DNA of 27,210 nucleotides, taken from Escherichia coli. Its GTDB lineage: Bacteria; Pseudomonadota; Gammaproteobacteria; Enterobacterales; Enterobacteriaceae. This document shows positions 5,638 through 27,165 of the stretch, piece by piece. The DNA lies in the NCBI GenBank assembly GCA_005388305.1, contig GCA_005388305.1_4327.1. One strand, 5' to 3'. A program made the translations under genes and the position numbers. The notes under the pieces are model-generated. The model ran no database searches, was not told the DNA's origin, and saw only the letters and a program-made list of their open reading frames with translations. Numbering within the stretch: the stretch's first letter is position 1; each line of letters opens with the position of its first letter.

Positions 5638-5774
5638 TACTCTTCGGATAACTTTTCCAGTACAAACGCCAGTTGCGCATTAGCGGCGTCTCTTTGCTGC
5701 CGTAGTCGCAGAACCTCTTCTTCTAGTTCCTTGATACGTTTTTGCAATGCGGGAATCGGGGCTATGATGTTCAT
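5638..5774 (-). CDS. small coiled-coil protein, 45 aa (below ORF-track cutoff)
   Basis: ATG at 5774-5772 overlaps the helicase TGA stop in an ATGA arrangement, with GAGGT RBS-like sequence upstream. Translation MNIIAPIPALQKRIKELEEEVLRLRQQRDAANAQLAFVLEKLSEE. Ends just before the terminator. Confidence 0.3.
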
Positions 5775-8698: not shown

Positions 8699-8830
8699 TC
8701 ATTCCAGCACCCACAGATAAATTGCGATGAATATACCCAATACGGCAACCATCATGCCGTATTGGCCTTCGCGACAGTAGACACCGGCAGCAAATCCCGT
8801 CAGTACCGCGATAATCAGTTTACTTAGCAT
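8699..8830 (-). CDS. putative small hydrophobic membrane peptide, 43 aa (below ORF-track cutoff)
   Basis: ATG at 8830 overlaps the 3' end of the polymerase gene by 11 nt. Translation MLSKLIIAVLTGFAAGVYCREGQYGMMVAVLGIFIAIYLWVLE has two hydrophobic stretches. No independent support. Confidence 0.2.
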   Translation of the reverse strand: MLSKLIIAVLTGFAAGVYCREGQYGMMVAVLGIFIAIYLWVLE

Positions 8831-11099
8831 AACGGTGCACCTCTTCCCCGGCCCATGTTAGCGGGAATCCTTCAGCCCATTCAGGTAATGAGCATAACAG
8901 GTCACCCATCTCTTTAACCGTGTACTCCGGCGTGTCTGGCGTTTCGGCGACACATTCATCGTGTACGTGGAGTACAATTGGGTAGCCCGCTGCCTCGACC
9001 GTCAGGAGTCCGTTAACCAGTAAATCACGGCACAACGCCTGGATGATGTTTTCACACAATTTTCCGCCGTGTGTGTACAAAGTTGTCCACTGGCGGGTGG
9101 TCTGATTTTCGCCCTGGTATTTAATGCGAACGTTAGTTGTTACGCGCCCGTCCTCGTCAGTCTCTTTAGTGACGCTTAAACCTATACCAGGGTAGGACAT
9201 AATGCGCCCGGACGGCAACTCCACGCACAACCACCAACCCGGCACAAAGTTACCCTGTCTGTCTTTCTCTTTAGTACGCCATATGCGAATAGCTCTGTCG
9301 CCGTTAAGGCGGACTCTGGCCCCCGCCCAAAACTCTCGTCCCGGATTTCTGATTGCGGCAATTACCGAATCCTTAAGGTCGTTCCAGAATTTCACTGTTT
9401 CCGGATGGGCCTCCCGCCACATGCGCTTGATAGCATCGCAGGTGCGCCAGACTTCCTTTGGCAGCACATAGGAGGCCCGTTCGTCTTTTTTACCGGGTTT
9501 TGGGGGTCGCTTAGCCTCCTGAATCCGCGCCCATTCATAACCTCTGGCAGTAGCCGCCCATATATGATCAGGGAATGTCCCCCGCATTGTCTCCGTCATT
9601 TTAAANNNNNNNNNNNNNNNNNNNNNNNNNNNNNNNNNNNNNNNNNNNNNNNNNNNGCCGCCCTCATAGCCGAGGCCAAGCTCGCAACATTTCCCGACCT
9701 GTCGTAGGTCTTTACGGGTGGCTTTCAGTTCTATGGGGTCCATACCAAACATCTTACCAGCTGTGGCGCAATAAATATCAATCCCCGCGCGGAACGTATC
9801 AAGGGCGGACGTCTCCCCCGCCGTCCAGGCTAACCCACGCCCTTCCACGTTCGAGTAGTCGGCAACGAGCAACTTATTGCCTTTTTCCGGGATAATGCAA
9901 CTGCGGACAGTTGAGGCTGTTAGTTTAGATACGTCGAAACGGCGATGCGCCCGACCTTTTAACAGCAAATTGATGCCGAACGATAAGGGGTTAAGCCTGC
10001 GGTTCCAGTCTTCGTCGGACTCCCACGGCTGGCGTACAAGTTTCTTTTCCTCGTTAGTCGGGTCGTCATGGTAGTACCCGCGCGACAGGTTCTGCGGTTG
10101 GAACCCTTTACCCGCAAATCGTAAAGTGCGCTTTGCCCCACCGTACTGGATGCAACCGCGACGGCGTCCGTCTTTGGACCGTCCTAGCAGTAGCGGTTTG
10201 TATTTTGTTGACGCCGTGGAGGCCGCGCCGAGGCGCATCTCAATGATTGTGCGTGCATCGTCCGGTAAGTCGTCGTCCTCTAGCAAGCCTTCGAGCGTTG
10301 CTTTCTGCGCATTATAAATATTGTAGGCCGGTGCCAGTTCCCGGAGGATTGGCAGAAAATCTTTGCCAGTTAGTTTCCCTCCGAATTTCGCGCGGGCCTC
10401 GTTTTTTAGCTCTTGCTTGTGGCGTTCCACTGCCGCTACCGCCGCCTCAGCAAGAGCCGTGTCAACAAAGAAGCCTCGGTCGTTAATTAACTGGTCCAGT
10501 TCCAGTACACGGTCTTCGAACTCGGAGTTACCCCAACGCGGCAACTTATGGAACACTTCACGCATCGCGGTGATGTCGCTAACGGCGTACTTGATGAACA
10601 GCGCCCACTCATCCGGGTGCGTTTCAGCAGTGTAGCGGCGAATTTTGTAGTTCTTCGGCGTCGGTTTAGAGAAACGCTGAATAAGCGCTTTGCCTCGTTT
10701 GTCTTTCGCGTTGTCTGCAGACACGCCAAGCACTTCGCACAATGCGTCGAGTGAACCCGGCAGCGCGTGACGAAACGCCCAAATCATCGTATCAATGGTG
10801 TTGCTTACCGGAATATCAAAGCCCCAGCAGTGTTTCATGATGAGCCTGTCGAACATTGAGCCGTTGTGCCACACCATCTTGATGCGACTGTTTGGCTTAA
10901 CCAGGCGGCGCAGTGCGCGGTGCAAATCTCCCGGCATGTCGCTGCCGTCGGTGCAATCCCATACCTGTACAGGCTCGTCGTCAAAAGCGTATGTGCAGAT
11001 AAGCACTTCGGTAGTTGGATGTTCGGCGTAAGCGTAGGAGCCGACTTTCTTCAAATCGGCTTCGGAGAATGTTTCAAAGTCTAAGAACAGGTAACTCAT
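8820..11099 (-). CDS. family A DNA polymerase with 3'-5' exonuclease domain, 759 aa (interrupted by an assembly gap)
   Basis: Exo I LFLDFETFS, Exo II WHNGSMFDRL, Exo III YAVSDITAM, pol motif A LLVADYSNVEGRGLAW, motif B RKDLRQVGKCCELGLGYEGG, motif C VLHVHDECV. A run of 17 X residues in the translation corresponds to the N run. Confidence 0.9.
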   Translation of the reverse strand: MSYLFLDFETFSEADLKKVGSYAYAEHPTTEVLICTYAFDDEPVQVWDCTDGSDMPGDLHRALRRLVKPNSRIKMVWHNGSMFDRLIMKHCWGFDIPVSNTIDTMIWAFRHALPGSLDALCEVLGVSADNAKDKRGKALIQRFSKPTPKNYKIRRYTAETHPDEWALFIKYAVSDITAMREVFHKLPRWGNSEFEDRVLELDQLINDRGFFVDTALAEAAVAAVERHKQELKNEARAKFGGKLTGKDFLPILRELAPAYNIYNAQKATLEGLLEDDDLPDDARTIIEMRLGAASTASTKYKPLLLGRSKDGRRRGCIQYGGAKRTLRFAGKGFQPQNLSRGYYHDDPTNEEKKLVRQPWESDEDWNRRLNPLSFGINLLLKGRAHRRFDVSKLTASTVRSCIIPEKGNKLLVADYSNVEGRGLAWTAGETSALDTFRAGIDIYCATAGKMFGMDPIELKATRKDLRQVGKCCELGLGYEGGXXXXXXXXXXXXXXXXXFKMTETMRGTFPDHIWAATARGYEWARIQEAKRPPKPGKKDERASYVLPKEVWRTCDAIKRMWREAHPETVKFWNDLKDSVIAAIRNPGREFWAGARVRLNGDRAIRIWRTKEKDRQGNFVPGWWLCVELPSGRIMSYPGIGLSVTKETDEDGRVTTNVRIKYQGENQTTRQWTTLYTHGGKLCENIIQALCRDLLVNGLLTVEAAGYPIVLHVHDECVAETPDTPEYTVKEMGDLLCSLPEWAEGFPLTWAGEEVHRYAK
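9606..9656. other. assembly gap (51 consecutive N) inside the DNA polymerase gene
   Basis: Directly visible run of n characters; its length is a multiple of 3 so the frame is formally preserved, but the true length and sequence are unknown. Confidence 0.95.
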
Positions 11100-22864: not shown

Positions 22865-23034
22865 TGTTTAACGACATTAATGCAGCAATCGAAGAAGCAA
22901 TCTGGCGTCGTTACAACGGTGAGCAACAACGGCACTTCTGCCTCGTGCAACGCGGTAACATGATTGCCGTAGTGCAGGACCGCGATAATAAATATACGAA
23001 TGCGATGTGGACAACGAGGAATTTCTTAGGATGA
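22864..23034 (+). CDS. hypothetical protein, 56 aa (below ORF-track cutoff)
   Basis: ATG 22864; stop overlaps the next ATG (ATGA). Confidence 0.4.
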   Translation: MFNDINAAIEEAIWRRYNGEQQRHFCLVQRGNMIAVVQDRDNKYTNAMWTTRNFLG

Positions 23035-23267
23035 TTACCAGCATTCCGAACCTGATTAAAGAATTTGGCACGATGGCGGAGACATGCCGACAAACCGGCA
23101 TCAACGAAATGACGATTGCGAAGTACAGCAAAGACGTCGATTGTGAACGCCATGTAATTTATAACAATCGTCTGATGACGCACGTTAAGACAAGCCCGGT
23201 GTTATTCACGCGCCGGGGTATTACTAAAACAGAGCAACGTATTGCTAAAGAGGAGAGTGGGGAATGA
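23031..23267 (+). CDS. hypothetical protein with HTH-like segment, 78 aa
   Basis: ATG 23031 (ATGA overlap); the segment ETCRQTGINEMTIAKYSKD looks like a helix-turn-helix. Confidence 0.5.
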   Translation: MITSIPNLIKEFGTMAETCRQTGINEMTIAKYSKDVDCERHVIYNNRLMTHVKTSPVLFTRRGITKTEQRIAKEESGE

Positions 23268-23422: not shown

Positions 23423-23524
23423 GACTACTAATCATCCCTAACGCCTGGGCCATTCCCGTAGCTAACGACCATTACGGCGGCGATGGTAAAAGAGCACCAC
23501 GACACGGCCTATACAACTGATACA

Positions 23525-23546
23525 AGCCCTCTACGGAGGGCTTTTC
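23525..23546 (+). terminator. rho-independent terminator upstream of the packaging genes
   Basis: AGCCCTC-TACG-GAGGGCT hairpin followed by TTTT. Confidence 0.6.
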
Positions 23547-23641
23547 TGTACATCCCGCCCAATCCCCTTATATAATCCCTTTAGACGCGTAGGGCGCGTC
23601 TGGTTCGCTCTGATGGTCAGACGCATATGCAAGGGGATTCT

Positions 23642-24190
23642 ATGAAGCTGAAACTCAAGCAGCCATCGCCAGAGGTGGTGCAAGCTGCACATGAAGAAGC
23701 TGTTAGCGCAAACCGCCGCCGCCGTAAACGACCGCGCGGTAAACAGAGCCTTTATCAATCGTCCCGTAATTCCGCAGCGTTGTGGGACCCGGACTATTGC
23801 GACGCGTTAATCGAGTTCTTCGACCGCACGTCGTGGGAACTCGTGCCTACGTCTAAGGGTGACGAACGCCCACTGATTCAGGATAAACCTCCGTCACTGG
23901 CCCGCTTCGCCCGGCACATAGGCGTCACTATCCCGATTATTAAGCTGTGGCTGCGCGAGATTCCCGCATTTGCAGAAGCATACGAGACAGCACAGGCACT
24001 GGAAGAGGCGTACTTCACTGAGACAGGGGCCGCTGGCATCTCTGCTACGTTTGCTGCCGCTAAGCTGGGCCTTAGCAAAGAGAAACCAGTTGAATCGACC
24101 GAAGAAACAGCACCTACCGAGATTATTTTCAGTGTTGCAGAGCCTGTAGGTAAAATCGTAACAACGAACATGGGCGAGGTAGAGGAATGA
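23642..24190 (+). CDS. terminase small subunit, ~182 aa
   Basis: Directly upstream of and ATGA-coupled to the large terminase subunit; basic N-terminal patch (RRRRKRPRGK) and HTH-like segment (SLARFARHIGVTIPIIKLWLRE). Start ATG 23642 with AAGGGGA RBS (the ORF track uses ATG 23627). Confidence 0.55.
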   Translation: MKLKLKQPSPEVVQAAHEEAVSANRRRRKRPRGKQSLYQSSRNSAALWDPDYCDALIEFFDRTSWELVPTSKGDERPLIQDKPPSLARFARHIGVTIPIIKLWLREIPAFAEAYETAQALEEAYFTETGAAGISATFAAAKLGLSKEKPVESTEETAPTEIIFSVAEPVGKIVTTNMGEVEE

Positions 24191-26947: not shown

Positions 26948-26975
26948 AAGGCCCCATAACAGGGCCTTAGTTTTT
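26948..26975. terminator. bidirectional rho-independent terminator between the portal gene and the convergent small gene
   Basis: AAGGCCC-CATAACA-GGGCCTT hairpin with an A-run upstream and TTTTT downstream. Confidence 0.6.
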
Positions 26976-27165
26976 AGTTAAGGTACGCTGCTCGCCCCGC
27001 CATATACCCCGCGAGATACATTTTAAACCATTCGTTGCATTCACCGTTCTCATAGTACGCACCAATTTTCCACATTTCTTTTGTTTCACGATCAAAGCGG
27101 AAGCGCCCCTTGCAGTTCTTCTCAAATAATTCCATGATTTCATACCATTCTTTAGAATATAACAT
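26974..27165 (-). CDS. hypothetical protein, 63 aa, AT-rich leftward gene (moron-like)
   Basis: ORF on the strand opposite the packaging genes; GGAGA RBS; copy of the conserved promoter element upstream; terminator downstream; visibly more AT-rich than its neighbours. Confidence 0.5.
   Translation of the reverse strand: MLYSKEWYEIMELFEKNCKGRFRFDRETKEMWKIGAYYENGECNEWFKMYLAGYMAGRAAYLN

Follow-up and report, generated by a model that had tools for sequence, protein, structure and literature searches.

The question raised by the short leader in front of the small terminase gene, terS, of a Kagunavirus is what the palindromes packed between its promoter and its start codon are for. The locus lies in a 27,210-nt stretch of DNA filed under Escherichia coli (contig GCA_005388305.1_4327.1; this whole stretch is called the window hereafter), which belongs to a K1G-like virulent siphovirus of the genus Kagunavirus (Guernseyvirinae); the 901 bases around the leader share 92-97% identity with K1G/K1ind-like Escherichia phages and 75-80% with Salmonella Jerseyviruses. 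A first-pass annotation read the leader as a translational timing switch for the packaging genes, in which one segment alternates between two hairpins and the ribosome-binding site of terS is hidden on transcripts reading through from upstream, and offered a protein operator or a pac/cos region as the alternative. The comparisons described here favor a different reading, namely that the leader is probably part of a conserved control cassette heading the packaging and morphogenesis genes, in which a first hairpin (HP1) would protect the 5′ end of the mRNA and the apex of a second (HP2) would serve as the contact for a partner. The cassette is ordered as terminator, sigma-70 promoter, 59-nt leader with HP1 and HP2, Shine-Dalgarno (SD) sequence and terS ATG.

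Two hairpins that form together

The three motifs from which the first-pass annotation built its alternating hairpins, GACGCG (23584-89), GCGCGTCTG (23594-602) and CAGACGC (23618-24), are all present, and the inverted repeats among them are recovered independently by a repeat search of the window. What that annotation missed is that CAGACGC has a second and better 5′ partner, as positions 23603-07 and 23609-13 pair with 23617-26. Since CAGACGC pairs within HP2, HP1 and HP2 can coexist, and the two together are the minimum free energy (MFE) structure of the leader in the window (-18.0 kcal/mol). HP1 closes on the triloop AGG (23591-93) and can be extended by optional U.G pairs at 23582/23602 and 23590/23594. 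HP2 is a bulged hairpin built from a lower stem (23603-07/23622-26), a bulged C (23608), an upper stem (23609-13/23617-21) and the loop UGG (23614-16), with the apex GAUGGUC at 23612-18; at 23605 the window carries a T in place of the G of its relatives, leaving its HP2 with one mismatch. The folding z-scores of the leader as a whole are weak (-1.46 and -0.18), and the SD is predicted to be open in the transcript that starts locally.

The loop of HP2 also holds an AUG that opens a frame of 10 codons (23613-23645), which has no SD of its own and ends in a UGA overlapping the terS AUG (AUGA). This upstream open reading frame (ORF) is found in Kagunavirus only, runs into an early stop in Jersey and lacks its AUG in the metagenomic contigs L255 and L256, which have CGG in the loop of HP2; it was rejected as a candidate and is probably meaningless. 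Binding of the CsrA type was likewise set aside. The CsrA motif has a GGA loop, and the loops here read (A/U)GG followed by G or U.

Conservation by compensatory change

About 100 homologous leaders from IMG/VR and GenBank were collected and 39 distinct sequences aligned. Among these the terminator, HP1 and HP2 are jointly 99.2% paired, each of the three helices contains a double-change pair together with frequent G.U variants (e.g., GCGUCU/GUGUCU and AUGCG/GUGCG), and the observed covariation score is reached by none of 500 shuffles. HP2 is retained as UCUGA/UCAGA in Kagunavirus changes to UAUGA/UCAUA in Jerseyvirus, a change that introduces a central C-U mismatch into the alternative hairpin of the first-pass annotation. 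Exact-pattern scans of IMG/VR returned only Kagunavirus and Jerseyvirus copies and chance matches, and a profile-based search for the locus added no lineage; more distant carriers were found by tblastn of GenBank phages and by a protein-database profile search for TerS relatives.

Besides Jerseyvirus, lineages whose TerS is only 26-60% identical also have a leader with the same two hairpins in front of terS. It is found in TS6 and SE1 (Salmonella), in Dhillonvirus (SECphi4, WF5505 and IMG/VR loci), in Serratia phage Otaku, in Edwardsiella phage eiAU-183 and, out of 12 Logan metagenomic contigs examined, in L255-L261, L264 and L265. The order shared by most of these is terminator, -10 hexamer, a gap of 5-9 nt (mostly 6-7), HP1, HP2, SD and ATG, and HP1 starts within this range past the -10 in every motif-bearing lineage. 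HP1 has a stem of 7-11 bp that differs greatly in sequence between lineages and a purine-rich triloop, AGG or UGG and rarely GGG or AGA. HP2 consists of two stems separated by an internal loop or bulge. The upper of these has the form NNNGA-(U/C)GG-UCNNN, in which the three outer pairs covary (UCU/AGA, UAU/AUA, GCC/GGC, GGU/ACC) and the apex GA-(U/C)GG-UC is kept in every motif-bearing lineage.

As MAFFT misaligned the hairpin arms of the distant lineages, a covariance model and a gap-free alignment anchored on the loops were used instead, the latter with 20 distinct sequences from about a dozen lineages. In this loop-anchored alignment 98.8% of pair cells are canonical, 23 cells being G.U or U.G and 3 non-canonical, and in 10 of the 12 pairs both partners vary. 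Covariation scores 0.896, compared with 0.247 +/- 0.033 for shuffles, and pairing in slid controls amounts to 33-55%. All seven loop-anchored pairs of HP1 covary, with 3-6 pair types each and 98.6% pairing, so that in its stem the structure and not the sequence is conserved, as expected of a stabilizing stem-loop. The same two-hairpin structure is the MFE fold of all 11 representatives folded, and in each the plus strand is more stable than the minus strand. A covariance model (R1) built only from Kagunavirus, Jerseyvirus and TS6-type leaders finds the Dhillonvirus leaders at the expected place with E values of 0.006-0.07, and finds one copy per genome, always between the -10 and terS. Taken together, these sequence comparisons show that HP1 and HP2 are conserved by compensatory change across several genera. 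Rfam 15 gives no match in the window at the gathering threshold and only sub-threshold chance matches in the leader at E<=10, and a description of the two-hairpin leader was not found in the searchable literature.

Serratia phage ChibiTotoro (L251) has two HP1-like hairpins 5′ of terS, one of them with an apex, CGCUCAGGGGGCG, identical to that of Jerseyvirus HP1, and has no GAUGGUC hairpin; it may represent a variant architecture of the same leader.

A terminator and promoter in front of the hairpins

In the alignment of Kagunavirus and Jerseyvirus leaders the conserved block begins exactly at a terminator hairpin, and the DNA upstream of it is a mosaic. This hairpin has a GC-rich stem of 8 bp (23524-31/23536-43) followed by a U-tract, as is typical of intrinsic terminators, with a folding energy of -14.9 kcal/mol and a z-score of -4.55; a simple scan had missed it owing to the interrupted T run. 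Its stem carries a compensatory pair (UA, GC and GU types) among these leaders, equivalent terminators precede terS in other lineages, and in the window it closes the upstream unit of small genes.

The TATAAT hexamer to which the first-pass annotation had drawn attention is very probably a genuine sigma-70 promoter element, because in Kagunavirus and Jerseyvirus TGTACA does not vary and the -10 is retained, although the spacer separating the two has diverged. Every lineage examined has a -10, in the form TATAAT, TACAAT or TATACT: Dhillonvirus-like lineages have an extended -10 (TGnTATAAT or TGnTATACT), and TS6, SE1 and Otaku have a TTGCCT -35 at 17 nt. The terS promoter pattern is unique. From the sequence, transcription would start near 23583, and transcripts beginning there would, as had been proposed, lack the upstream arm complementary to the SD. 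The partial overlap of a hairpin and U-tract by the -35 and -10 is ordinary among phage terminator-promoter cassettes, and Vibrio phage NF has the same terminator-promoter arrangement without the hairpins. A search of the literature for a mapped pac site, transcription start site or promoter study in these genera turned up nothing specific.

Most lineages have a C-rich discriminator (23577-23582 and equivalents; CCCTTT, CCCCCTT, CCCCTAA). If rrn-type promoters are a guide, such a discriminator may give short-lived open complexes that are sensitive to growth state. The leaders of the Jerseyviruses SETP3 (L072 and L035) and ST521_1H4 (L163) join a Kagunavirus-type spacer (…AATCCCCTTATATAATCCC…) to Jersey-type HP1, HP2 and SD, which suggests that recombination has taken place between the -10 and HP1.

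Features of the terS leader and related elements in the window
Feature	Position	Strand	Basis
Intrinsic terminator, AAGCCCUC-UACG-GAGGGCUU then UUUUCUGU	23524..23549	+	folding, compensatory pair
-35-like hexamer TGTACA, overlapping the terminator tail	23547..23552	+	10/12 promoter match, 18-nt spacer
Anti-SD arm AATCCCCTT, inside the promoter spacer	23561..23569	+	perfect complement of 23631-39
-10 hexamer TATAAT	23571..23576	+	promoter scan, conservation; predicted start ~23583/23584
Second anti-SD copy AATCCCTTT, spanning -10 and discriminator	23574..23582	+	repeat search; would occur only in read-through RNA
HP1, AGACGCG(U)-AGG-(G)CGCGUCU	23583..23601	+	MFE, pair probability 0.985, covariation
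HP2, bulged hairpin	23603..23626	+	MFE, pair probability 0.80, covariation
Translation initiation region, SD AAGGGGA then terS ATG 23642	23631..23644	+	substitution pattern
terS, small terminase subunit	23642..24190	+	PHROG 3064 terminase, E 3e-73
Copies of the palindrome AATAGTnnACTATT	8338, 11844, 14148, 14192, 17867, 19324, 21860, 27193		window count

A proposed role in 5′-end protection, with a conserved apex

The arrangement suggests the following course of events. The terminator would end the upstream small-gene unit, and the sigma-70 promoter overlapping it would start a new transcript at about 23583, which would open with HP1 and its purine-rich triloop at the very 5′ end, followed by HP2, both formed together. 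The approximately 15 unpaired nucleotides after HP2 would then carry a free SD and the terS AUG. HP1 would act as a 5′-terminal stem-loop that shields the late mRNA from 5′-end-dependent decay (RppH/RNase E), the apex of HP2 would be the contact site for a partner (a protein, RNA polymerase or an RNA) that tunes the packaging operon, and the complementarity between promoter and SD could silence terS translation on transcripts that pass the terminator.

Protection from 5′-end-dependent decay is the established role of 5′-terminal stem-loops in E. coli, and the hairpin of the ompA 5′ untranslated region and that of the T7 phi10 leader are known 5′-terminal stabilizers of the host and its phages. 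The terS leader resembles them in that the GC-rich HP1 lies at or a few nucleotides from the predicted 5′ end, with a stem free to vary as long as it stays paired, and in that the element heads a highly expressed late mRNA; the start of HP1 mostly 6-7 nt past the -10 is consistent with a hairpin at a predicted +1. It differs from them in adding a second hairpin with a conserved apex and in the NGG triloops, and in having a start site that is predicted.

Three features favor RNA structures on the mRNA-sense strand over sites in DNA as the conserved entity. G.U pairs are tolerated and their A-C counterparts are not, the apex of HP2 is conserved while its arms vary, which is the reverse of a dimer operator, and the distance from HP1 to the -10 is held in lineages whose promoters otherwise differ.

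Several observations weigh against the cassette as described. Covariation preserves a DNA palindrome as well as an RNA stem, so that the case for RNA depends solely on the G.U asymmetry and on the constant spacing from the -10, and the loop-anchored alignment was built from predicted hairpins and is biased towards pairing. The -35 is poor (4/6, with an 18-nt spacer), and the promoter may therefore need an activator; the sole Kagunavirus transcriptome paper gives timing at the level of genes only, and the transcription start is placed by inference. The motif is absent 5′ of terS in Klebsiella phage KLB16, Vibrio phage NF and two P22-gp3-like contigs, and atypical in contig L254 and in ChibiTotoro. 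Finally, a pure stabilizer needs neither a conserved HP2 apex nor similar NGG triloops in both hairpins, and for this reason part of the function of the leader would lie beyond stabilization.

Possible fold-back occlusion of the terS SD

The best surviving alternative gives the central role to the promoter-embedded complement of the SD, which would pair with the terS SD and AUG on read-through RNA so that only local transcripts are translated. It is possible but, on balance, rather unlikely as the function of the leader. The complementarity on which the first-pass annotation based this proposal is real, as AATCCCCTT (23561-69) is a perfect 9-bp complement of AAGGGGATT (23631-39), with TATAAT (23571-76) between them and the ATG at 23642, and a second copy matches at 85%. 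In the MFE fold of the read-through RNA the SD is closed into a long-range helix around HP1 and HP2, and when both transcript forms are folded the probability that the SD is unpaired is 0.15 on read-through versus 0.65 on local transcripts in the window, 0.22-0.27 versus about 0.6 in Dhillonvirus, 0.20 versus 0.88 in SE1 and 0.34 versus 0.73 in TS6. In the helix between the -10/discriminator and the SD, two pairs differ on both sides from genus to genus, SE1 shows a perfect pairing specific to its lineage (AAUCUCCU/AGGAGAUU), and in Dhillonvirus the SD is predicted to be occluded by the terminator tail. The duplex also beats shuffles in the window (97.6%, p 0.024), in the Jersey leader L036 (p 0.006) and in SECphi4 (p <0.001), and coupling of terS to the large terminase gene terL, whose start overlaps the terS stop (ATGA at 24187), would pass the silencing on to terL.

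Other observations weigh against it. The AATCCCCTT 9-mer has no double changes and four uncompensated variants within Kagunavirus, among them AATCACCTT, AATCCACTT and AATACCCTT, with its helix 89% paired, and it is missing from most Jersey-type promoters. The second-copy helix (alignment columns 50-59 with 113-122) is likewise 89% paired and is broken by polymorphisms within genera, and SETP3 and ST521_1H4 combine a Kagunavirus-type promoter with a Jersey-type SD. The predicted effect is small in Jersey (0.50 versus 0.62), Otaku and eiAU, only 3-4 of 10 representatives beat shuffled controls, and duplexes within a lineage are no better than those across lineages, so that no co-evolution is seen in the matrix. 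Both arms are constrained by other functions, as -10 and as SD, and read-through is already limited by a strong terminator in front. Chance alone would give the window about nine perfect 9-nt inverted repeats (gap <=80 nt), and some 10 distinct ones (19 overlapping matches against 8.6 +/- 3.8 in shuffles) are found; the 9-nt complement is on its own marginal. Of the translational switch first proposed, the promoter and a possible occlusion of the ribosome-binding site thus stand and the alternating hairpins do not, while the case for the specific 9-mer is weak.

Fold-back inhibition is known from IS10/Tn10 and IS50, where it protects against outside transcription. The terS locus resembles IS10 in that its own promoter lies between complementary segments (23561-69 and 23574-82 opposite 23631-43), with the 3′ arm over SD and AUG, so that read-through RNA can sequester the ribosome-binding site and the native transcript lacks the 5′ arm. 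It differs in that the pairing is lineage-variable without clear co-evolution, a terminator stands in front, and the gene belongs to a late operon and is not a transposase. Based on the folding predictions, the SD complementarity could plausibly be an accessory insulation device that varies between lineages.

Less likely readings: antitermination, packaging sites and alternating hairpins

A second alternative, in which the nascent HP1 and HP2, unaided or together with a phage or host factor, modify RNA polymerase so that it passes the terminators of the late operon, much as HK022 put or a nut site lacking boxB would, is unlikely. The put RNAs of HK022 and the nut sites of lambda are promoter-proximal antitermination RNAs, and the terS leader is like them in placing two adjacent nascent-RNA hairpins just after the promoter of a long operon that contains terminators. 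The hairpins follow directly on the only good plus-strand promoter ahead of the structural genes and occur once per genome, the conserved apex suggests a specific contact, strong terminator-like hairpins lie in the late region (26941-75 in the window and at 5745, 6346, 8737 and 13537 in RP180), and no strong plus-strand promoter scores downstream of the terS promoter in RP180. However, the leader has no similarity in sequence or model to a known antiterminator RNA, including any in Rfam at gathering or at E<=10, its hairpins are smaller than those of put, and its triloops differ from the boxB pentaloop. Moreover, the late operons of phages commonly contain internal terminators that serve as attenuators, and these require no antitermination. 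The boxA-like string CGCUCUGA (23606-13) is not conserved in Jersey or Dhillonvirus. A lambda nut site in particular was rejected, as CGCUCUGA matches the lambda boxA sequence CGCUCUUA at 7 of 8 positions in Kagunavirus only, and the loops are triloops and not a GNRA-like pentaloop.

Somewhat less probable still is a site acting in DNA, with the palindromes serving as a pac recognition or cleavage site or as a protein operator and having no role in RNA. Packaging sites do lie by terS in other phages, with pacL of SPP1 overlapping the gene 1 promoter, pac of P22 in gene 3 and pac of P1 in pacA, and the leader shares with these its position as a unique conserved element adjoining terS in a headful-packaging phage. 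It also holds four AGACGC-like half-sites about one helical turn apart, and symmetric changes in half-sites could mimic compensation if a binding protein co-evolved. The leader is set apart from the SPP1, P22 and P1 sites by its RNA pairing rules (G.U tolerated, on the sense strand only) and by a position tied to the -10; a fixed distance between HP1 and the -10 is not needed by a packaging site. In double-stranded DNA the 23 G.U/U.G cells would be asymmetries between half-sites, and the plus strand is always the more stable; the center of HP2 is conserved and its arms vary, the opposite of a typical dimer operator, and the palindromes do not show the strand-symmetric conservation of half-sites expected of such a site. 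A repeated operator was rejected because GACGC..GCGTC is unique in the window and has in RP180 one other match, by chance and inside a gene. Packaging in Jerseyviruses is headful and P1-like, with the pac site unmapped (PMC10783031), and PhageTerm reported no obvious termini in a Kagunavirus (PMC9825357).

Many genome records begin or end at the equivalent of 23602/23603 (SETP3, Jersey, ZC10, TUMS_E4, UTI-CM001, SZH-1 and ZCSE9). In SETP3 the start of ORF1 was placed at an in-frame ATG further upstream, and later records were arranged to match it; because this ORF-start convention explains them, record ends inside the leader are no evidence for pac or cos, and a physical end at 23602/23603 was rejected. 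The pac/cos alternative of the first-pass annotation found no support. More widely, genomes linearized within the leader include SETP3, Jersey, the EP23-like Dhillonviruses and HK578 (L026, L035, L167, L169, L173 and L176), which are opened at one of three places, the upstream in-frame ATG, TATAAT or a point a few bases 5′ of terS. Such a record has one part of the conserved element at each of its ends, which makes the element easy to overlook.

The operator-like palindrome that is abundant in this phage has another sequence, AATAGTnnACTATT. It is present in 8 copies of 14 nt in the window against 0.86 expected, and overlaps the window's strongest promoters of sigma-70 type (TTGACA-17-TATAGT and similar). 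The same motif was given by PHIRE as a 'phage promoter' in Kagunavirus fBC-Eco01 (PMC9825357). It looks like the mark of an operator/promoter regulon, and the terS promoter does not carry it.

The weakest alternative, that GCGCGTCTG alternates between its HP1 pairing and a pairing with CAGACGC and gates expression like an attenuator or riboswitch, has next to nothing left in its favor beyond a 7-bp complement (23596-602/23618-24) that is perfect in the window and other Kagunaviruses, since its central pair is broken by a C-U mismatch in 11 of 11 Jersey-type leaders and shows no covariation, the 3′ arm of HP1 has no complementarity to that of HP2 in Dhillonvirus, Otaku and eiAU, CAGACGC has its own covarying partner in HP2, the alternative fold reaches -10.7 kcal/mol against -18.0 for HP1 and HP2 with a probability in the ensemble of 0.012, or 0.000 when 23605 carries the consensus G, HP1 is transcribed first, and no U-tract follows HP1 or HP2. 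The two comparably stable, conserved and exclusive folds of an attenuator or riboswitch are not found, and neither hairpin covers the SD or precedes a U-tract in the manner of an SD-sequestering or terminator hairpin; judged by sequence and folding, the palindromes are not an either/or switch.

Gene context of the leader

Relatives of the window terS match PF16677 (GP3_package), and the gene is followed by a Terminase_6 large subunit (terL) and a DUF4055 portal gene; small ORFs including a NinH-like one (23007-23267), together with lysis genes, lie 5′ of the leader. As read from the alignment, differences between genera are all non-synonymous 5′ of 23642 and mostly synonymous 3′ of it. N-terminally extended TerS starting at 23603 or 23627 was rejected on this non-coding substitution pattern; several phages carry ACG or AAG in place of the ATG at 23627, and at 23603 the window reads GTT.

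Directly after the portal stop lies a strong bidirectional terminator-like hairpin (26941-75). On the minus strand next to it, an ORF of 63 aa (26974-27165) with a good SD and a -10-like TATAAT has no PHROG match and is probably a small moron that was inserted where portal and head genes adjoin. A run of N (9606-9656) lies inside the minus-strand ORF 8820-11099.

Implications

On the features tested, the leader is best filed as a cis-acting structured 5′ leader with a conserved apex, and not as an attenuator, riboswitch, nut site or pac site. Two misreadings are thereby corrected, as the palindromes are not an either/or switch and the database genome 'ends' within the leader are not physical ends. 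A bolder proposal, put forward here as a long shot, is that HP1 and HP2 constitute a promoter-proximal RNA element found in virulent siphoviruses of enterobacteria (Guernseyvirinae, Dhillonvirus, Eiauvirus and relatives). RNA polymerase, or a factor from phage or host, would bind its apex and NGG triloops and so license the whole late operon via processive antitermination or via factor-dependent translational or stability control; if this is true, the leader would act as the switch for their late genes.

Members of Kagunavirus, Jerseyvirus and Dhillonvirus rank among the phages most frequently isolated for therapy and biocontrol against E. coli and Salmonella, and already find use as synthetic-biology chassis. 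For genome engineers the leader marks about 100 bp that should not be disturbed, and many GenBank records cut through it. As a compact promoter-leader module it raises the question of what recognizes the conserved hairpin apex, and, being located at the expected start of the late mRNA, deeply conserved with covariation and without an Rfam counterpart, it offers a handle on the timing and level of late-gene expression in these phages.

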